Sequence record: MW269952.1 | Reading direction: 5' to 3' (one strand) | Length of the DNA stretch: 64,000 nucleotides | Source of the DNA: Escherichia phage P479 | In this document: positions 4,072 to 54,782 of the stretch, piece after piece | How the letters are laid out: every line of letters starts with the position of its first letter | Position numbering within the stretch: position 1 is the first letter of the stretch | Position numbers and translations under genes: made by a program | The notes under the pieces: model-generated | Databases searched by the model: none | The model's input: the letters and a program-made list of their open reading frames with translations, nothing else | What the model was told of the DNA's origin: nothing

Positions 4072-4431
4072 ATGGTAAGAGTTATCACTTTAGCCATAGG
4101 GTTAGTATTCAGCATGGGAGGAATAGCTTCAGTACAGAGCGACGACAACAACAGCATCATAGAATATGCAACGAGGACGGCTAAAGATTATTGTGCAGCA
4201 AGCAATGTGGATTGTATAATCCAGTTCAGTGCCAAGCTCACCGCAGCCTATAAAGATGGTCAAAATGATGTTGAACATACGCTTTTGAAAAAGAATGTAT
4301 TATCCAACAAATATGAAAAGAAATTATTTGAAATGGATTGCATTCTATCAAGTGCAAAATACAAGGCGGCCTGCACCAGTATGGTTGACAGGTTAGTGGA
4401 TTCATATAATAGAGGATTGAACTCTAAATGA
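4072..4431 (+). CDS. Hypothetical secreted protein
   Basis: 119 aa; hydrophobic N-terminus, several Cys. Confidence 0.4.
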   Translation: MVRVITLAIGLVFSMGGIASVQSDDNNSIIEYATRTAKDYCAASNVDCIIQFSAKLTAAYKDGQNDVEHTLLKKNVLSNKYEKKLFEMDCILSSAKYKAACTSMVDRLVDSYNRGLNSK

Positions 4432-4907
4432 TTACCCAGTATATTAAGGGCGATATCGTCGCCCTCTTTCTTCAAGGCAATATTATTGCACATGGTTGCA
4501 ACTGCTTTCACACAATGGGTTCCGGTGTAGCTGGACAGTTGGCGAAGGCTTATCCAAAAGTTTTAGAAATAGATAAAACCACTACTGAATACGGTTCTCG
4601 TGATAAATTAGGCGATATGTCTATTGTTTTTAAACATAAGCCTACAGGTTTTGGCATGTGCTATAACTTGTATACGCAATACGAACCAGGCCCTAATCTT
4701 GATTATGGTGCTTTAGTAAATTGTATGATAGAATTAAATCTACAAGCAGAAACCCTTTTGTTTAAACCGGTAATTTATATTCCTCGTATTGGTTGTGGTA
4801 TTGCAGGTGGAGATTGGGATAAGGTATCTCAATTAATTGATATGTTTACTCCTGATATTGATTTAATAGTGGTGGATTATGAAAGCACATTACCCGCATC
4901 CGTTTGA
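4428..4907 (+). CDS. Macro-domain protein (putative ADP-ribose binding/hydrolase)
   Basis: 159 aa; GDIVALFLQGNIIAHGCNC...MGSGVAGQL...IGCGIAGGDW matches the macro-domain nucleotide-binding signature. Confidence 0.65.
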   Translation: MITQYIKGDIVALFLQGNIIAHGCNCFHTMGSGVAGQLAKAYPKVLEIDKTTTEYGSRDKLGDMSIVFKHKPTGFGMCYNLYTQYEPGPNLDYGALVNCMIELNLQAETLLFKPVIYIPRIGCGIAGGDWDKVSQLIDMFTPDIDLIVVDYESTLPASV

Positions 4908-8952: not shown

Positions 8953-9405
8953 ATGATTATCAATGCAAACTCTTGGCATGCTCGTTTCCACGATAAATTT
9001 TATGACCGCCATTCTCGTCCGCACTCATTGTGTGCTTACTTTTGGAAAATGGTTTGGGCCTGTTTTGTTTGTGCCATTTTTATCGGTAGTATGGTTTTTG
9101 GATTAACTGTCGCGGGGGCTGGTGTATTAGAGCATTTCTTTGTATTAAGTACCCCGGTTGGTTTAGGTTTAGGGTTTATTTTAGGACTAGCTACACTGGC
9201 TCTTATTCTGGCGGTAGCATTTGGTTTAATGTATGGTCTAATGAATTTATGGTCCTGGTATGATTTACGTAAAGAAGAAAAGGAATGGCAACGTATTCTA
9301 GCCAAACGTGAAGGAAAGGAAACTAAAGAAAACATCGTTATTCAATACATTAAAGCTCGTAAATCTAAGATGTGTCCTGTAATCCACTTCGAGGACAAAA
9401 AATGA
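8953..9405 (+). CDS. Hypothetical multi-pass membrane protein
   Basis: 150 aa; hydrophobic helices in residues 30-110; overlaps the next gene. Confidence 0.45.
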   Translation: MIINANSWHARFHDKFYDRHSRPHSLCAYFWKMVWACFVCAIFIGSMVFGLTVAGAGVLEHFFVLSTPVGLGLGFILGLATLALILAVAFGLMYGLMNLWSWYDLRKEEKEWQRILAKREGKETKENIVIQYIKARKSKMCPVIHFEDKK

Positions 9406-10412
9406 GAACAGTTATGAAAGGCTACTTCGGTAGCCACCTTTATGGAACAAGTACCCCAGAATCTGATGTCGATTTTAAAGAAATCTTTGTTCCACATCCT
9501 CGTGATATTCTACTTGGGACGGCGATGAACCATACCAACCTGAACACAAATAACACGGCCACCAAAAATACAAAAGATGATGTTGACCATGAACTTTATA
9601 GTCTGAAATATTTCTTTAAACTGGCAGCCGAAGGCGAAACCGTTGCTCTGGACATGATTCACACCCCGGCTGACCTGGTAGTCAAATCCGATTTACCAGA
9701 TGTATGGAAGTTTATTCAAGACAACCGTTCACGGTTTTATACAACTAACATGAAAGCCTATTTAGGGTATGTCCGTAAGCAAGCTTCTAAATATGGTGTT
9801 AAAGGTTCTCGTCTGGCTGCTCTGCGTGGTGTACTGGCTATTGTTAACCAGATTCCTGAACAGTGGGTCGATTATCAAGAAGACGGTTCGACTAAGCAAC
9901 GTCGCACTAAGGTAGAAGATATCAAACATCGACTCCCTGAAAATGAGTTCTGTGAATGGGTATTCCATAACCACGAGAAAACAGGTCCTCAAACGTTCTA
10001 TACTGTTCTTGGACGTAAGTACCAAACCACCTTGTCTTTAATCGAGCTCAAGCAATCTCTGAATAAGCTCGATGCGGAATATGGTGAACGTGCTCGTAAG
10101 GCTGAAGCCAATGAAGGTATTGACTGGAAAGCATTGAGTCATGCTTACCGAGCTGGATATCAGCTGAAGGAAATTTATATGACCGGTGACCTTCAGTATC
10201 CTTTACGAACAGCACCGTTTATCCTTGAAATCAAACAAGGGCTACATGCTTTTAAAGATGTACAGGCTGAACTTGAAGCTATCGTTGATGAAGTCGAAAC
10301 TAATGCCATCTGGGCTGCTAAGAACGGTATGCCTGCGAAGGTGGACATGAAGTTCTGGGACAAGTTTGTTGAAGAGGTATATCTTGACAACCACAATTCC
10401 TATTATCGTTAA
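9402..10412 (+). CDS. Pol-beta-superfamily nucleotidyltransferase-like protein
   Basis: 336 aa from ATG 9402 (GAGGA Shine-Dalgarno); GSHLYGTSTPESDVDF fits the G[SG]-x9-D-x-D nucleotidyltransferase motif. Confidence 0.55.
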   Translation: MRTVMKGYFGSHLYGTSTPESDVDFKEIFVPHPRDILLGTAMNHTNLNTNNTATKNTKDDVDHELYSLKYFFKLAAEGETVALDMIHTPADLVVKSDLPDVWKFIQDNRSRFYTTNMKAYLGYVRKQASKYGVKGSRLAALRGVLAIVNQIPEQWVDYQEDGSTKQRRTKVEDIKHRLPENEFCEWVFHNHEKTGPQTFYTVLGRKYQTTLSLIELKQSLNKLDAEYGERARKAEANEGIDWKALSHAYRAGYQLKEIYMTGDLQYPLRTAPFILEIKQGLHAFKDVQAELEAIVDEVETNAIWAAKNGMPAKVDMKFWDKFVEEVYLDNHNSYYR

Positions 10413-27143: not shown

Positions 27144-27900
27144 GCCTCTTATTGAGGCTTCATTTTGCAGTTATCAAAATGCCAACGTTTCATATTGGCT
27201 GGCGTACCGACTACATTACAATGTGGACACTGAATTTTGGGGTCCACCTTTTTCTTCCGGTTTGGATTGGATTTGCAGAATTGTTGGTGAGTGGATATAA
27301 CACACTTTTTACCTTCAAGACCACAAAATTCACAAGTTAAAATTTCATGTTTAGCTTGTTTTAATCCTACTGAAATTTTTTGCTTTTGTTTTTCTGGAAT
27401 AGTATGAACAACCTTGTTTGGACCTTTGGAACAGTTATCAAAATGCCAACGATTCATATTGCCAACGAGACCGGTTTTTCCACAGTGTGGACATTCAACT
27501 CTCGGTTTTAATTTGGCGGATTCTGACATTTTCTTTCTGGTTTCATCGGAGAAAATTTTATTTTGTTGAGCTTCCAAGTTTTTACGACGAAGCCATCCAA
27601 ATAATTTGTTTTTGCTTCTGTCGGCGTTTGGTGAGGAAACTGTCATCATGCGCGCGGCATAGACCAAAGAAGCATTATTTGGATGCATTTTGACCAACAG
27701 TTGATGACAAACGAAATGTTCCTCGGGAGTTAAATCAACAAGATTTGAAGCGTCGTCTGCCCCACCCATACAACGGGGTATAATGTGATGACTTTCAGAG
27801 TATGTGGTTAATTTGCGATTCAATGCTCTGCTAATAAGCTTTTGGTAAATGATGTTATAATTCATATCAGACCCTTGTTTGATACTGCAACGGATAATAT
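27144..27900 (-). mobile_element. Homing-endonuclease insertion between genes 46 and 45
   Basis: Only antisense gene in a co-directional replication-gene block; HNH family. Confidence 0.55.
27149..27865 (-). CDS. Free-standing HNH homing endonuclease with three zinc-ribbon repeats
   Basis: 238 aa from the internal Met (MNYNIIYQKL); HNH motif SHHIIPRCMGGADDASNLVDLTPEEHFVCH; three CPHCGKTG/NMNRWHFDNC-type repeats; AAGGG Shine-Dalgarno. Confidence 0.75.
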   Translation of the reverse strand: MNYNIIYQKLISRALNRKLTTYSESHHIIPRCMGGADDASNLVDLTPEEHFVCHQLLVKMHPNNASLVYAARMMTVSSPNADRSKNKLFGWLRRKNLEAQQNKIFSDETRKKMSESAKLKPRVECPHCGKTGLVGNMNRWHFDNCSKGPNKVVHTIPEKQKQKISVGLKQAKHEILTCEFCGLEGKKCVISTHQQFCKSNPNRKKKVDPKIQCPHCNVVGTPANMKRWHFDNCKMKPQ

Positions 27901-28121
27901 TATTTATGAGCAATTTTTTAACCGGGCAGCATTTACTGGCTGTCCCTGAAATTAAACGGTATGTGTTAGTTAATACCTTTTCGAAAGATGAACACCTTGT
28001 TACTGAACGTGACTTACAAAACGCTTTCGGTGAAGAATATGTTAAAATAATCGCGAACAGACACAATGCCTGGTTCGCATATGAATACTTTGATTAATTG
28101 ATAATGAATAGAGAGAATATT

Positions 28122-45443: not shown

Positions 45444-45585
45444 CACAAGAAGAAGCTGAACGTCAGGCAAAAGAAGCACTGGATTTGCTTTTGAAAATTG
45501 GCAGTAAAATGATGGAAGAAAATGAAAAGTACATCAAGGAAAATAAAGTTCCTGATGGTCCATTAGTTGGTAAGAGGAAAACATT

Positions 45586-46068
45586 ATGAAAGTATATGAA
45601 TTAGAATTCTATATCCGTGATTCATCCGGCCAAACACGACCTTACGATGCAACAGCCTGTCTTATCATGGTTTACAATGGCATGGATTCGGTTACTGAGT
45701 TGGAAACAAAATTAATGAACCTGACGATGCCAGAAAATGTCACGATGAAGGTATTTCATAACAAAAACGTTAATGTGGCTGAAGGGTGTCCGTTTACTGT
45801 TTCCGAAGCTCTGCATATCAAAGGCTATCGCCACCCGGACCTTTATGGCGAAGATATCATTTTCTATAAAGATAGAGATAAAATGGCCACTGAACGCCTT
45901 AAAGGTCGCACATATCTGATTTCCACTACCGACGACCTTGCTGAAGTTGAACGTCAGATTTGGAAGCACTTTGATATCGGCTTGCGCTTTACTTTAACAG
46001 AAGAAGCTATTCAAGATACTAAAATGCGTGCTCGTATGTATGGTTACGGTCCTATCGGTGGCTACTAA
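45586..46068 (+). CDS. Hypothetical protein (Mrh-like by position)
   Basis: 160 aa; between soc and the mod-like genes where T4 encodes mrh; not verified. Confidence 0.35.
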
Positions 46069-46243
46069 TGGATTTATTTGAACTTTTTGAAGAGCCTAAA
46101 GCTCCCACAGAAGCCCGTGTGGACCTATTTGACGAACTTGATGCGATTATACAGAAGCATGGTTTTAGTCTCCCAATGGAAGTTCTACGCGACCTGGCCT
46201 CATATTACGACGACCCACCTCCATGGGCACCATGGGTGAAACG

Positions 46244-46477
46244 ATGAACTGGTTAACAAATATTCCCACATCGGCGCTGGATATCGACCGTAAACACGCT
46301 CATAAGGAAATTGAGCAACAAAAAATTAATCGCTTACAAAGGATTAAGACTGAATCCGAGACAATTAAAGTCAAACGCCCGACAGAATCGAAAAGTTCTT
46401 ACTCATCATATCAATCTCCGATTGGCATGGCCGCAGACATTGCAGTCTTTGGCGTCCCACTTGGAGTATTTAAGTAG
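46244..46477 (+). CDS. Hypothetical protein
   Basis: 77 aa from ATG 46244. Confidence 0.3.
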   Translation: MNWLTNIPTSALDIDRKHAHKEIEQQKINRLQRIKTESETIKVKRPTESKSSYSSYQSPIGMAADIAVFGVPLGVFK

Positions 46478-46533
46478 TTTACTTACTCCCCTCCTAATGA
46501 CATAATGGTCTTTCTTACAACAGAGAGGCCATT

Positions 46534-47094
46534 ATGAACATCATCAAATCTGATACCGAACCCAACCAGTTAAAATTTAGTGAAATGGAGATAGCTTCAT
46601 TATTTGAATGCCGCACATCAAAAGTCGATAAGACCTTGCATTCAAACGTTAACTCAATCATCAAGTCAAGGTTATCTGTACCTGATACAGTCTTGTATCG
46701 TGGGGTTACCCAGCAAGAGATTGATTTGTTAGATGAAGCAAAAGAATCAATGCAACCTTTTGAATTTGGAAGGATAACCTCCTTTACAGAAGACTATGGT
46801 ATTGCCAGGGATTTTGCTGCAATGGAATATGTGTCAAGGACTATCATCAGATTGAATCATACAAAAGCTTTTTGTTACCATGATGCGATGCGCAAAATCG
46901 CGCTTGATGTTCCACTGGAATTCTTCAATACAGCCTCTGGTTCCAAACAGGCAGCAACGTTAAGACGTGAAGAATACATGGACATGATTGATTCTGAGCT
47001 TGAATGGTTTGTTCCAGTTGACCAGAAATTCGTGGTGGTTGATGCTGGATTTGTTGGTGATTATTATGTTCTTGACTGTGTACAAGAGCAATAA
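46534..47094 (+). CDS. modB: Mono-ADP-ribosyltransferase, ModB-like (R-S-E class)
   Basis: 186 aa; LYRG, SFTEDYGIARDFA and ELEW fit the R, S-x-S, E-x-E triad; position matches T4 modB. Confidence 0.5.
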   Translation: MNIIKSDTEPNQLKFSEMEIASLFECRTSKVDKTLHSNVNSIIKSRLSVPDTVLYRGVTQQEIDLLDEAKESMQPFEFGRITSFTEDYGIARDFAAMEYVSRTIIRLNHTKAFCYHDAMRKIALDVPLEFFNTASGSKQAATLRREEYMDMIDSELEWFVPVDQKFVVVDAGFVGDYYVLDCVQEQ

Positions 47095-47138
47095 GACACG
47101 TTAAGATGTTCCTATCAACTACTGATGAGGATAATAAA

Positions 47139-47753
47139 ATGCTGTACGCAAGTCACCAATTAGCAGAGTACATCAATGCAGTTAAATGTGAATATTTTCG
47201 TGAAAATACCCAGATTGAAATTGATGAAATTTACTCTGAGTTGGAACAGAGTACACTCTGGCAGTGCATGGAAAATAAGCCAGACACTATCCAGGAAACT
47301 TTGAACAAAATTATTCGTAAGAATTTGACTTCTGTTGTGCCTGGTAAGTTATATCGCGGGATTTCTAAGAAAACTTTGGCATATCTTGAAACCGTAGGAT
47401 GTGTTGGTGCTACGATTGAGTTTGACCGTGTAATGAGTTTCTCCAAAGATTTCAGTGTTGCGCGTAACTTTGCTTCCTTTAGCTTCTATGGAACCAAAAA
47501 TATTTTCTGTATTAATGATGCACCATTCGCATTTGATTATCAGGAAGCGATTTTTAAAATGATTTGTGCGGCACCTCCTGAAGAGTTCAACGGACTATAT
47601 CCTGAAATAACTCGTTCTTCAAACTTGCAATTAGTAAATGATGAAGATGAGATGATGTTCCCTGCGGGAACTACGCTACGCGTGGACTCTATTGAGAGCA
47701 TTTATAGATGGGAAGACTATAAATTATGGAATCTTTCCGTTCTTTCTTACTGA
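47139..47753 (+). CDS. modA: Mono-ADP-ribosyltransferase, ModA-like (R-S-E class)
   Basis: 204 aa from ATG 47139; LYRG, SFSKDFSVARNFA and EDEMMF; paralogue of the upstream gene. Confidence 0.5.
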   Translation: MLYASHQLAEYINAVKCEYFRENTQIEIDEIYSELEQSTLWQCMENKPDTIQETLNKIIRKNLTSVVPGKLYRGISKKTLAYLETVGCVGATIEFDRVMSFSKDFSVARNFASFSFYGTKNIFCINDAPFAFDYQEAIFKMICAAPPEEFNGLYPEITRSSNLQLVNDEDEMMFPAGTTLRVDSIESIYRWEDYKLWNLSVLSY

Positions 47754-47834
47754 AGTATTCTGGGTTAACAAAAGGCCAAAGACCTTAGAACCATTATACA
47801 CAGTAAAAATAAAAGCGTTAAAGGCTAAAAAGTA

Positions 47835-47885
47835 GTGTACATAAAAGATGTATAGTGTATAATGAATCCATACTGAGTTTTCAAT
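47835..47885 (+). promoter_or_regulatory. T4-type early promoter (AAAAGTAGTGTACA family)
   Basis: TGTACA 47835-47840, 16-bp spacer, TATAAT 47857-47862, then CCATACTGAGTT. Confidence 0.55.
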
Positions 47886-47909
47886 CGTCCGTAAGATGAG
47901 AAAAATATC

Positions 47910-48653
47910 ATGAATATGTCAAAAGAAGAGTTTGAATTAAAAGTTTACAAACGTCGCGAGCATACCAAAACGTCTGCAAAACGTCGTAACAAGGATTTCA
48001 ATCTGTCTAGTAAGTATATCGCCAATCTTTTGAAACAAGAATTCTGTGCGTATTCTGGTGAACGTTTTGATGAAAATTCAACTCAAGATAAAGTTTCCTT
48101 TGAACGCTTTAACAATGATATAGGTTATATTGAAGGCAATGTTATCCCTGTCAAAACTAAGTACAACGGTTTACGTGCTGATTTATCTCTTGATGAACTT
48201 AAACGTGCGCAGACTCGTTTGGCGGTGCGTATTAATGGCGGTTCTAAGATGCCCAATAGTTTTAAAGTAACTCCTGCTGACTATTATAAAATTCGCAAAA
48301 TTGTTAAAAATATTAAAGATACCGAACGTGGAATCAAGAAACGTCAAAAACATTTAAAAGAGCTTTATAAAAGTGGCGCTAAAGATACCACCCCTTCTGT
48401 GATTGCAGTCAAGGCTCGTATCCATGGACAAATGGCTTCCATCGGAACTAGTCAACGTGGGCTGAAAATGGTTATGGGTGGTCCTGACTGGCGTCTGAAA
48501 ATGAAATCATCTGACGCTGAAACGCGTTACGATATGTATGATAAAATTATTCAAGGTCTGGAGCGTTTAGATAAGTTGTCATTCATTGACCGCCTTAAAC
48601 TGAAACGTGGTCTACCTTTGAACGCGTCAATTTTTAAACTGATTAGAGGTTAA
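47910..48653 (+). CDS. Hypothetical basic protein (Srd-like by position)
   Basis: 247 aa; Lys/Arg-rich; between the mod-like genes and dda where T4 has srd; not verified. Confidence 0.35.
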   Translation: MNMSKEEFELKVYKRREHTKTSAKRRNKDFNLSSKYIANLLKQEFCAYSGERFDENSTQDKVSFERFNNDIGYIEGNVIPVKTKYNGLRADLSLDELKRAQTRLAVRINGGSKMPNSFKVTPADYYKIRKIVKNIKDTERGIKKRQKHLKELYKSGAKDTTPSVIAVKARIHGQMASIGTSQRGLKMVMGGPDWRLKMKSSDAETRYDMYDKIIQGLERLDKLSFIDRLKLKRGLPLNASIFKLIRG

Positions 48654-48654
48654 T

Positions 48655-48954
48655 GTGATGTACTACGCATATGTGCTGGTTCACAAAGATAAAGATGGTT
48701 TTGAACGCCCATTGGAGTATGATGGAAAGGTTACCTTATACACCACAAAAGCGGGCGCAGAATATGAACTTGCCAACTATTCATATACTACAAACCGCTA
48801 TTTACGCATGGGACGTATTGAAACACGGTATACTCCCAGAAAATGGTGGTTTGATAAGCGGGAAACAAAAACTGTTTTTCCTACTGAAGAACACGCACGA
48901 GAATTGAAATTAGTTTTAGATACTTTATATGTTAAGCGAGTAAAATTGGCATGA
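48655..48954 (+). CDS. Hypothetical protein (dda.1 position)
   Basis: 99 aa. Confidence 0.4.
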   Translation: MMYYAYVLVHKDKDGFERPLEYDGKVTLYTTKAGAEYELANYSYTTNRYLRMGRIETRYTPRKWWFDKRETKTVFPTEEHARELKLVLDTLYVKRVKLA

Positions 48955-50279
48955 TTAAATTTGAAGACTTGAACACAGGACAAAAAGAAGCTTTTGATTA
49001 TATCACTGAAGCTATTCAGCGACGTTCAGGGGAATGTATCACTCTGAATGGTCCAGCTGGTACAGGTAAAACTACTCTGACAAAATTTGTCATTGACCAT
49101 TTAGTGCGTAATGGAGTTATGGGAATTGTGCTTGCTGCACCAACTCACCAGGCGAAAAAAGTTTTATCTAAATTGTCTGGTCAAACAGCGAATACAATCC
49201 ATAGTATCTTGAAGATTAACCCGACCACATATGAAGACCAAAACGTTTTTGAACAGCGCGAAATGCCTGATATGTCAAAATGTAATGTTCTGGTTTGTGA
49301 TGAAGCGAGTATGTATGACGGGTCTCTGTTTAAGATTATTCTTAACTCTGTTCCTGAATGGTGTACTATTCTTGGGATTGGTGATATGCACCAGCTGCAG
49401 CCAGTTGACCCAGGAAGCACACAACAAAAGATAAGCCCATTCTTTACGCATCCTAAGTTCAAACAGATTCATCTGACTGAGGTCATGCGAAGCAATGCTC
49501 CTATCATTGAAGTGGCGACAGAAATTCGTAATGGTGGCTGGTTCCGTGATTGTATGTATGAAGGTCATGGCGTACAGGGGTTTACCTCACAAACCGCTTT
49601 AAAGGATTTCATGATAAACTATTTCGGTATTGTAAAAGATGCTGATATGTTGATGGAAAACCGGATGTATGCTTACACGAATAAATCAGTTGAAAAACTG
49701 AACAATATTATTCGTCGCAAGCTCTATGAAACGGATAAAGCATTTTTACCGTATGAAGTCCTGGTTATGCAAGAGCCGCACATGAAAGAGCTGGAATTTG
49801 AAGGCAAGAAATTCAGCGAAACCATTTTTAATAATGGTCAGTTGGTTCGCATCAAGGATTGCAAATACACTTCCACCATTCTCCGTTGTAAAGGGGAATC
49901 ACACCAGTTAGTGATTAATTACTGGGACCTGGAAGTTGAGTCAATTGATGAAGATGAAGAATATCAGGTTGACCGCATCAAAGTTTTACCAGAAGACCAG
50001 CAACCAAAATTCCAGGCATATCTGGCTAAAGTTGCTGACACATACAAACAGATGAAAGCCGCTGGTAAACGTCCAGAGTGGAAAGACTTCTGGAAAGCTC
50101 GCCGGACCTTCTTGAAAGTTCGTGCTCTTCCGGTCAGTACAATCCACAAGGCCCAGGGCGTTTCAGTGGACAAAGCATTCATCTATACTCCATGCATCCA
50201 TATGGCCGAAGCTTCATTAGCGAGCCAGTTGGCTTATGTTGGAATCACACGAGCGAGGTACGACGCATATTATGTATAA
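48951..50279 (+). CDS. dda: DNA helicase Dda (SF1B)
   Basis: 442 aa; Walker A GPAGTGKTTL, ILAAPTH.AKK.LSKL and FHKAQG..VD.AFIYTPCIH match T4 Dda. Confidence 0.95.
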   Translation: MIKFEDLNTGQKEAFDYITEAIQRRSGECITLNGPAGTGKTTLTKFVIDHLVRNGVMGIVLAAPTHQAKKVLSKLSGQTANTIHSILKINPTTYEDQNVFEQREMPDMSKCNVLVCDEASMYDGSLFKIILNSVPEWCTILGIGDMHQLQPVDPGSTQQKISPFFTHPKFKQIHLTEVMRSNAPIIEVATEIRNGGWFRDCMYEGHGVQGFTSQTALKDFMINYFGIVKDADMLMENRMYAYTNKSVEKLNNIIRRKLYETDKAFLPYEVLVMQEPHMKELEFEGKKFSETIFNNGQLVRIKDCKYTSTILRCKGESHQLVINYWDLEVESIDEDEEYQVDRIKVLPEDQQPKFQAYLAKVADTYKQMKAAGKRPEWKDFWKARRTFLKVRALPVSTIHKAQGVSVDKAFIYTPCIHMAEASLASQLAYVGITRARYDAYYV

Positions 50280-50511
50280 GGTACATAAAGAAGATTTAGA
50301 TAATCTTATCTATGGTATTCAGGACGCGGTTGAATTTTTCGAAGATAATCCGACTATCGTCGTGCAGGGTAATTACGTTTTACTGGAACTGAATCTTATT
50401 CGGAAACGTATGGCCGCGATTGAATATTTTAACAATGAAGAGCCAGGGATTTTTATCTCCGACTATGTTGCTGGCGAAATTCAGAAATTAAAAGAGATGT
50501 GCGATGATTGA
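50272..50511 (+). CDS. Hypothetical protein
   Basis: 79 aa from ATG 50272. Confidence 0.35.
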   Translation: MYKVHKEDLDNLIYGIQDAVEFFEDNPTIVVQGNYVLLELNLIRKRMAAIEYFNNEEPGIFISDYVAGEIQKLKEMCDD

Positions 50512-53981: not shown

Positions 53982-54782
53982 ATGATGATTAATGAAGTAT
54001 TCGGGATAATAAAAAATAAATTTCCTGATTATATTCCACCATCGAGTGGAAATAGTGGGATTTATATAATTTATAATTTAATATCTCAAAAATATTATAT
54101 AGGAAGTTCAAATGATTTTCATCGTAGAATTGCCACGCATTTTCGGAATTTATCCAAAGGTGTTGGCATAAACAGCCATTTACAGTTTGCATATGACAAA
54201 TACGGTAAAGAATCATTTGTATGCGAACTAATAGAAAATATAGAAGTTTATAATAAAAAATATTTCTTGAAAAGAGAAAGTTTCTGGATAACTGAATTAA
54301 ATTCTATCAAAAACGGTTATAATATAACGTTGGCGGATTTTGGTGGTGACACAATGTCCAATCATCCAAGAAAAGCGGAAATTAATTTACTTAAAGGCGA
54401 AGCCGTTAAAAAACGGAATAAACTGTTAGATAAAACCGAATATAATAGAATATATGGAACTGGTGTTAAAAGAAAGCCATACCCCGATGATTTTGGTTAT
54501 AATGTCTCCCTGCGTAAAGCAGGCGAAAATCATCATTTCTTTGGCAAACATCTTTCTCTTGAACACAAAGATAAATTATCAAAATTATTCTCTGGTGGTA
54601 AAAATCCCGAGGCTAAAACGTACTCTATAAATGGGGTCATATTCACAACCCGAAAAGAAGCCGCCGAAGTTCTTGGTATTAGTTATCCTACATTACGAAA
54701 ACGCTGCAAATCCGATGATGTAAAATGGTCCAGTTGGAAATGTTTAGGTTATACTAAAAATTTAGAGGTCAAAAATGATTAA
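53982..54782 (+). CDS. GIY-YIG homing endonuclease (Seg-like)
   Basis: 266 aa; GIYIIYN...YYIGSS GIY-YIG motif, catalytic R/E/N spacing like I-TevI; AT-rich coding; immediately upstream of gene 39. Confidence 0.75.
   Translation: MMINEVFGIIKNKFPDYIPPSSGNSGIYIIYNLISQKYYIGSSNDFHRRIATHFRNLSKGVGINSHLQFAYDKYGKESFVCELIENIEVYNKKYFLKRESFWITELNSIKNGYNITLADFGGDTMSNHPRKAEINLLKGEAVKKRNKLLDKTEYNRIYGTGVKRKPYPDDFGYNVSLRKAGENHHFFGKHLSLEHKDKLSKLFSGGKNPEAKTYSINGVIFTTRKEAAEVLGISYPTLRKRCKSDDVKWSSWKCLGYTKNLEVKND

Follow-up and report, generated by a model that had tools for sequence, protein, structure and literature searches.

The Mod ADP-ribosyltransferases of phage T4 make modifications that help to turn the host's expression machinery to the use of the phage. 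The target of ModA is the alpha subunit of RNA polymerase (at Arg265), and the targets of ModB include ribosomal protein S1, EF-Tu and trigger factor. These T4 proteins are the prototype of the Mod family and have already been characterised biochemically. [quoted passage not shown] ModB also carries out RNAylation, in which NAD-capped RNAs are attached to S1 and L2, and a catalytically dead ModB results in a smaller burst size and later lysis (PMC10468400). Why RNAylation is limited to ModB is not understood, according to the same authors (PMC10468400).

We analysed a window of 64,000 nucleotides from Escherichia phage P479 (sequence record MW269952.1), in which an initial annotation had proposed two ADP-ribosyltransferase paralogues side by side. 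The two genes, ORF1 and ORF2, are very probably the Gaprivervirus counterparts of T4 modB and modA, and code for small, single-domain, NAD+-dependent mono-ADP-ribosyltransferases of the R-S-E (C3/VIP2-like) class. Homology, intact catalytic residues, predicted fold and synteny are the basis for this identity, and analogy with the described enzymes suggests enzyme activity, arginine specificity and early timing for both products.

A tandem gene pair in a T4-like early region

By nucleotide comparison, bases 45500-50300 of the window match 105 phage records. The top match is Escherichia phage PSD2001 (98.2% DNA identity, with 100% of the query covered), and the next in rank are P896, RZ and Shigella phage SP18. 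All four belong to the genus Gaprivervirus (Straboviridae, Tevenvirinae), which places the window in the genome of a T4-like phage, oriented with its early genes on the + strand. The neighbouring genes were identified by PHROG/Pfam and BLASTP, and their order was compared with those in T4, SP18 and PSD2001. The order around the pair is soc, mrh.2, mrh.1, srh, modA.4, modA.3, modA.2, an extra 84-aa ORF, ORF1, ORF2, srd, dda.1, dda and dexA, which reproduces the T4 order from mrh.2 to dexA, with modB followed by modA. ORF1 and ORF2 thus lie between modA.2 and srd in a T4-type early region, at the modB/modA position where the initial annotation had placed them, and its coordinates for the two + strand ORFs (46534-47094 and 47106-47753) were also correct (Table 1).

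Table 1. Positions of the two mod-type genes, their motifs and expression signals, and of the macro-domain gene, in the 64,000-nucleotide window. Residue numbers in ORF2 are counted from ATG 47139.
Feature	Position	Strand	Evidence
ORF1, Mod-family R-S-ExE ADP-ribosyltransferase, modB slot, 186 aa	46534..47094	+	ORF, PHROG 832, BLASTP, AF2, Foldseek
ORF2, Mod-family R-S-ExE ADP-ribosyltransferase, modA slot, 204 aa, preferred start	47139..47753	+	
ORF2 long form, 215 aa, ATG 47106	47106..47753	+	
Promoter-like site, GTTTAC-18 nt-CATAAT, TG before -10	46477..46506	+	consensus scan, upstream of ORF1
Shine-Dalgarno-like GAGAGG, 5 nt 5' of ORF1 ATG	46523..46528	+	sequence reading
Shine-Dalgarno GAGGA, 7 nt 5' of ATG 47139 (preferred ORF2 start)	47127..47131	+	sequence reading
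ORF1 Y55-R56-G57 (R codon)	46699-46701		read from sequence
ORF1 S83-F84-T85	46780-46788		
ORF1 A91-R-D-F-A95, between S-F-T and E-x-E			
ORF1 E155-L-E157	46996-47004		
ORF2 Y72-R73-G74 (R codon)	47355-47357		
ORF2 S100-F-S102	47436-47444		
ORF2 A108-R-N-F-A112			
ORF2 E169-D-E171	47643-47651		
Macro-domain protein, Tk.4 orthologue	4428-4907		Pfam Macro E 5.4e-8, 33.2 bits vs cutoff 22

The ModB/ModA-type identity of this pair is already known, because its relatives in GenBank carry modB/modA or ADP-ribosylase labels–the records of SP18, VR20 and ECML-359 give the gene names modB and modA, and those of Escherichia phages PSD2001, P896, RZ and P479 annotate 'ADP-ribosylase' twice. The assignment is routine annotation, correct but ordinary. 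The pairs in SP18, PSD2001, P896, RZ and P479 are essentially the same genes as ORF1 and ORF2, with 95-98% DNA identity in the block. ORF1 is 97-99% identical to its Gaprivervirus counterparts, and a GenBank protein of 204 aa (P0001, "ADP-ribosylase [Escherichia phage P479]") matches ORF2 with 100% identity.

The sole difference from the SP18, PSD2001 and P479 genes is in the start codon of the second gene, which is annotated as the long form (215 aa) in the older SP18 record and as 204 aa in PSD2001 (615 nt) and P479. The most likely start of ORF2 is ATG 47139, which we prefer because a GAGGA sequence precedes it and because the N-termini of homologues agree with it: it is the start of P0001, and most ORF2 homologues begin with MLY, matching this position. 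By reading of the sequence we saw no convincing Shine-Dalgarno sequence upstream of ATG 47106.

Upstream of ORF1 is a promoter-like site that SP18 and PSD2001 have in identical form, and the same layout is present upstream of T4 modB (GTTTAC-18 nt-TATGAT). Because promoter-like sites are in no excess over shuffled sequence in the region as a whole (9 versus 9.4), the case for this promoter is one of positional analogy and not proof. By that analogy the site is probably a T4-type early promoter serving both genes, and its presence is consistent with ORF1 and ORF2 having the early expression known for T4 modA and modB. The sole match in a terminator scan falls inside ORF1 and was rejected as due to chance.

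Homology, catalytic residues and predicted fold

The two proteins have diverged from each other, as had been noted initially (34% identity over 121 residues; E = 2e-18), about as far as T4 ModA has from ModB (30% identity; E = 7e-16). In BLASTP searches, each has full-domain similarity to both T4 proteins, extending over 150-160 residues. ORF1 matches ModB with E = 2e-23 (31% identity) and ModA with E = 3e-12 (27% identity), and ORF2 matches ModA with E = 9e-21 (38% identity) and ModB with E = 2e-24 (36% identity). The proposed kinship with T4 ModA and ModB, which the lack of a significant alignment would have refuted, therefore stands, with significant E-values from 3e-12 to 2e-24. The T4 enzymes, whose biochemistry has been described, are only 27-38% identical to the two proteins.

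Both proteins match PHROG 832, "RNA polymerase ADP-ribosylase" (2.8e-28 for ORF1 and 1.3e-42 for ORF2), and the precomputed Pfam family PF26816 labels their homologues. Direct scans of both ORFs against Pfam and NCBIfam gave nothing above cutoff, the best match being to DRAT with E = 0.02; a match to Sld5 in these scans (E = 0.002) was judged to be spurious. A sequence search of the PDB gave no matches for ORF2 and only chance-level haemoglobin matches for ORF1, and no structure of a Mod-family protein. When 1.84 billion cluster representatives were searched exhaustively with a profile, only 49 clusters at 50% identity reached E <= 1e-3, and 28 of these reached E <= 1e-10; the Mod family is therefore small. 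The wider family was seen by this exhaustive search of representatives; a word-indexed homologue search gave 12 and 2 matches. Mod homologues are present in 931-1075 phage records, mostly of enterobacterial T4-like phages, with one to three matching places per genome.

The catalytic Arg, Ser (STS-type) and E-x-E of R-S-E enzymes are intact and in order in both ORFs, and we could read all four motifs that the initial annotation listed–Y-R-G, S-F-[ST], A-R-[DN]-F-A and E-x-E–in the order it gave (Table 1). In an alignment of 43 family members, with identities as low as ~23%, no columns are invariant other than R73, G74, S100, E169 and E171 (ORF2 numbering). Since these five residues are invariant and the alignments to the T4 proteins are significant, the agreement in motifs is far beyond chance.

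The alignment also bears on which serine is catalytic. The serine of S-F-[ST], which was the one picked initially, is the family-invariant one, whereas a later serine, in the stretch F-A-S/S-F-S, is not conserved across the family and is replaced in ORF1, which has Ala-Ala at this place. It is within this later stretch that database annotations of T4 ModA and ModB mark S109 and S111. The invariance of the first serine and the variability of the second argue for the S-F-[ST] strand serine, S99 in T4 ModB and S96 in ModA, as the catalytic residue, so that family-wide conservation would pin the catalytic position to the S-F-[ST] strand.

AlphaFold2 models of ORF1 (pLDDT 85.6, pTM 0.79) and ORF2 (pLDDT 94.4, pTM 0.88) both have a predicted ART fold. 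In both models the catalytic Arg is in a beta-strand, S-F-[ST] is in a strand that is followed by a helix, and E-x-E opens a strand that comes after a long helix. Ahead of the core lies a helical bundle at the N-terminus. In Foldseek searches with the ORF1 model, HopU1, C3, iota-Ia, CDTa, VIP2 and similar enzymes are among the PDB matches listed, and matches in BFVD include ModA/ModB models of other T4-like phages with TM ~0.8. The R-S-E mono-ADP-ribosyltransferase class, which had been proposed from motifs, is now backed by T4 similarity, PHROG 832, the invariant R/S/ExE residues, the predicted ART fold and synteny.

On the model of solved R-S-E enzymes, NAD+ would be held by the Y-R-G arginine and the S-F-[ST] serine, the second Glu of E-x-E would stabilise the oxocarbenium transition state, and the first Glu would direct the transfer of ADP-ribose to the guanidinium group of arginine. 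We infer arginine specificity because of the E-x-E motif and the biochemistry of T4 ModB. Soon after infection, with expression from the putative early promoter 5' of ORF1, the two enzymes would then ADP-ribosylate arginines of host proteins.

Correspondence with T4 ModB and ModA

The position of each gene suggests that ORF1 corresponds to ModB and ORF2 to ModA. The BLASTP bit scores are 80 for ORF1-ModB, 49 for ORF1-ModA, 83 for ORF2-ModB and 73 for ORF2-ModA. ORF1 therefore prefers ModB, and the best match of T4 ModA in the window is ORF2 (73 versus 49 bits), so the pairing based on position (80 + 73 bits) is also the best pairing by bit score (49 + 83 bits when swapped). Position and this bit-score pairing make up the case for one-to-one orthology with the T4 genes, which they suggest. 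Two further characters, the length of the loop and the sequence E-x-E-W, were considered as possible shared derived characters and rejected as not decisive: most members of the family have E-x-E-W, and the loop differs widely in length among them.

We also made a neighbor-joining tree of 45 family members (177 columns, 100 bootstraps). It contains several tight clades: ORF2 is in a clade with 96% support, ORF1 groups with P0013 and P0014 (100%), T4 ModA with P0034 (100%), and T4 ModB with P0023 (100%). The ORF1/P0013/P0014 group joins P0020 and P0021 at 84%. All the deeper nodes have bootstrap values of 0-25%, which makes it a star tree in which neither of the window proteins groups with its T4 namesake. 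With the tree in this form, the targets of the T4 enzymes are not transferable to ORF1 and ORF2 with confidence, and the names ModA and ModB pass between genera by position only. Similarly, since the restriction of RNAylation to ModB is not understood, there is no sequence rule by which RNAylation could be assigned to ORF1 or ORF2. Net charge and pI, considered as a hint of RNA binding, were uninformative, all four proteins being acidic.

This leaves some room for a different reading, in which both genes code for active ADP-ribosyltransferases but the T4 names are not transferable: ORF2 would be the ModB-like enzyme, acting on ribosomal proteins or in RNAylation, and ORF1 would be a genus-restricted enzyme with other targets, for example in host defence. 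We regard this as possible but doubtful. The shape of the tree, which leaves orthology unsettled, is in keeping with it, and so is the score of ORF2, which is slightly higher with ModB (83 bits) than with ModA (73 bits). That preference is shared by most of the family representatives, which score higher against ModB than against ModA, so it is T4 ModA itself that appears to be a divergent branch. The two types also differ in their distribution: for proteins of the ORF1 type, identity reaches 90% or more in only 33 phage records and stays under 60% in the remaining 898, and the closest relative found for ORF1 outside its own type is a single metagenomic protein with 61% identity, whereas the identity of ORF2-type proteins grades more smoothly (>=99% in 10 records, 80-90% in 34, and 60-80% in 40). 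Finally, the 2025 HIDEN-SEQ preprint ties another T4 protein, Alt, to evasion of Mokosh type I (10.1101/2025.11.20.689424), and its plot of the Mokosh screen also labels the ModA orthologue of Bas37, although the label by itself gives no result for that protein (10.1101/2025.11.20.689424). Against this reading are the conserved gene order and the preferences of ORF1 for ModB and of T4 ModA for ORF2, which favour the correspondence of the pair with modB and modA.

A related and equally tentative suggestion is that the Mod family, few in clusters and star-like in phylogeny, is a small set of fast-diverging phage ADP-ribosyltransferases in which paralogues have been retargeted between T4-like genera, so that the ORF1 type, which is restricted to Gaprivervirus, and perhaps ORF2, may act on other host proteins than the T4 enzymes do. 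Components of anti-phage defence are one possibility among the candidate targets of retargeted Mod paralogues, an idea in line with the role in Mokosh type I evasion reported for T4 Alt in that preprint. It is plausible that the two diverged paralogues may have targets separate from each other.

It is most improbable that one copy is a catalytically inactive or decaying duplicate with motif-like residues only: although ORF1 has 186 aa to the 207 aa of T4 ModB, is without ~17 N-terminal residues and has pLDDT <50 at residues 1-11 of its model, and although few proteins of the syntenic block have diverged as much as the Mod proteins (31-38% identity to T4, as against 33-81% for their neighbours), neither copy has lost any of the five family-invariant residues, the frames are uninterrupted and the proteins 95-100% conserved in many phages that were isolated independently, model confidence is high throughout the catalytic core, and the N-terminal shortening of ORF1 is common to its clade (P0013, P0014).

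The macro-domain gene and comparison with described enzymes

The initial annotation had combined the pair with a macro-domain protein into a writer-eraser toolkit, with the Mod enzymes adding ADP-ribose and the macro protein removing it. The genome does code for a macro-domain protein, as had been stated (Table 1), and macro domains are modules that bind or hydrolyse ADP-ribose, but other findings make such a partnership very unlikely. The macro gene is 42 kb upstream of the mod pair, between vs and tk, in a different early-gene block. We saw neither genomic linkage nor co-distribution of this gene with the Mod genes; its homologues are much more widespread, with 2857 phage records of Tk.4 homologues in many unrelated phage groups, including phages of Pseudomonas, Vibrio, Acinetobacter, Aeromonas and Campylobacter, which far exceeds the spread of Mod.

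The macro protein is instead an orthologue of T4 Tk.4 (57% identity, E = 2e-69), and it matches PHROG 335, "phosphatase" (9e-71). Its closest solved relatives by sequence are macro domains of the Appr-1''-p phosphatase, DarG and TARG1/OARD1 types. According to the preprint cited above, T4 depends on one gene alone, tk.4, for resistance to DarTG2, a defence that ADP-ribosylates DNA; its product, named AdfM, protects T4, and the proposed action of AdfM is removal of ADP-ribose from DNA (10.1101/2025.11.20.689424). The marks made by T4 ModB are N-glycosidic bonds to Arg, which are removed by ARH1 and resist NH2OH and ARH3 (PMC10468400). Neither the 20 mid-sized ORFs of the window that were compared with Pfam nor the first 25 kb as annotated in RZ contained an ARH/DraG or NADAR gene. 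The best reading of the macro protein is as a counter-defence gene product of the Tk.4/AdfM type, independent of the Mod enzymes and not a partner of them. The tandem R-S-E paralogues at the modB/modA position are thus the part of the initial annotation that we retain, and the writer-eraser toolkit is the part that we set aside.

Among structurally solved proteins, the AlphaFold2 models of ORF1 and ORF2 resemble Arg-specific mono-ADP-ribosyltransferases of the R-S-E class, such as Vis (4xzj), VIP2 (1qs1), the C3 exoenzymes, HopU1 (3u0j) and iota-toxin Ia, and Mod proteins can be likened to further solved members of this class, a Tre1-type enzyme (6drh_B) and ART2.2 (1gxy). Sequence identity between Mod proteins and these enzymes is only 8-20%. 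Unlike them, Mod proteins have a family-specific N-terminal helical bundle, and their ARTT region, the segment before E-x-E, is modelled as a long helix. Mod proteins also differ from the solved R-S-E toxins in being without secretion or translocation domains.

Compared with T4, ORF1 is in the same slot as ModB (NP_049636), as the first of the tandem ART genes, 3' of modA.2, and the Y-R-G, S-F-T and E-x-E-W motifs are common to the two proteins, although ORF1 is shorter by 21 aa. The targeting of S1, EF-Tu and trigger factor, and RNAylation, are features of T4 ModB. ORF2 is in the same slot as T4 ModA (NP_049635), as the second tandem gene, directly 5' of srd. The two are similar in length (204 versus 200 aa), and have in common a short loop before E-x-E and a 'P-A-G' after it, but where ORF2 has Y-R-G and S-F-S, T4 ModA has W-R-G and S-A-S. 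Specificity for Arg265 of RNA polymerase alpha is a feature of T4 ModA.

The invariant serine and the start of the second mod gene

In an alignment of the Mod family of ADP-ribosyltransferases, the serine of the S-x-[ST] strand is the sole invariant serine, corresponding to S99 in T4 ModB and S96 in T4 ModA. Two serines later in the sequences, ModB S111 and ModA S109, which we take to be the active-site residues flagged in database entries, fall in different alignment columns and are not conserved in the family.

The second mod gene of phage P479 has two candidate ATG codons, at 47106 and 47139. The downstream ATG is preceded by a GAGGA Shine-Dalgarno sequence and agrees with most deposited homologs (204 aa), and the annotation of Shigella phage SP18 uses the upstream ATG (215 aa).

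Genes and signals around the mod pair

By BLASTP we found no counterpart of the 84-aa ORF that precedes the first mod gene in the block of T4 examined, and a shorter, 234-nt form of it is annotated in SP18 and in Escherichia phage PSD2001. T4 mrh itself has no match that we could find in P479. Downstream of the pair, the second mod gene and srd are separated by 156 nt (47754-47909), and because this interval contains a promoter-like site upstream of srd, srd may have an early promoter of its own.

Features near the mod pair and elsewhere in P479
Feature	Coordinates	Strand	Remarks
Macro-domain protein gene	4428-4907	+	Tk.4 ortholog, 57% identity to T4 Tk.4
RlaP-type (RNA-repair-pathway Pol-beta family) nucleotidyltransferase domain protein	9372-10412	+	346 aa; Pfam 4.8e-11
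Minus-strand ORF	27149-28066	-	Matches PSD2001 gene after gp46 annotated 'homing endonuclease'
modA.3-type Mrh-like gene	45586-46068		Only Mrh-like gene in P479
ORF between modA.2 and first mod gene	46223-46477	+	84 aa; PHROG 14077, function unknown
Promoter-like site	47836-47863		TGTACA-16 nt-TATAAT; between second mod gene and srd
GIY-YIG/NUMOD3/I-TevI-type homing endonuclease ORF	53982-54782	+	266 aa

Homing endonuclease ORFs

The I-TevI-type ORF lies directly upstream of the gene for the large topoisomerase subunit. Because the PSD2001 annotation has no gene of that size at the matching place, the ORF appears to be a mobile insertion, variable among close relatives. The ORF matching the PSD2001 gene annotated 'homing endonuclease' is the sole sizeable minus-strand ORF of its stretch.

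Nucleotidyltransferase and macro-domain genes

The counterpart of the RlaP-type gene in Escherichia phage RZ is annotated as 'nucleotidyltransferase'. The macro-domain gene is flanked by vs on one side and by tk.x genes on the other. Its product matches the NCBIfam DarG model weakly (28 bits, the cutoff of 250 being far above this), and its T4 ortholog, Tk.4, has recently been named AdfM, an anti-DarTG2 factor (10.1101/2025.11.20.689424).
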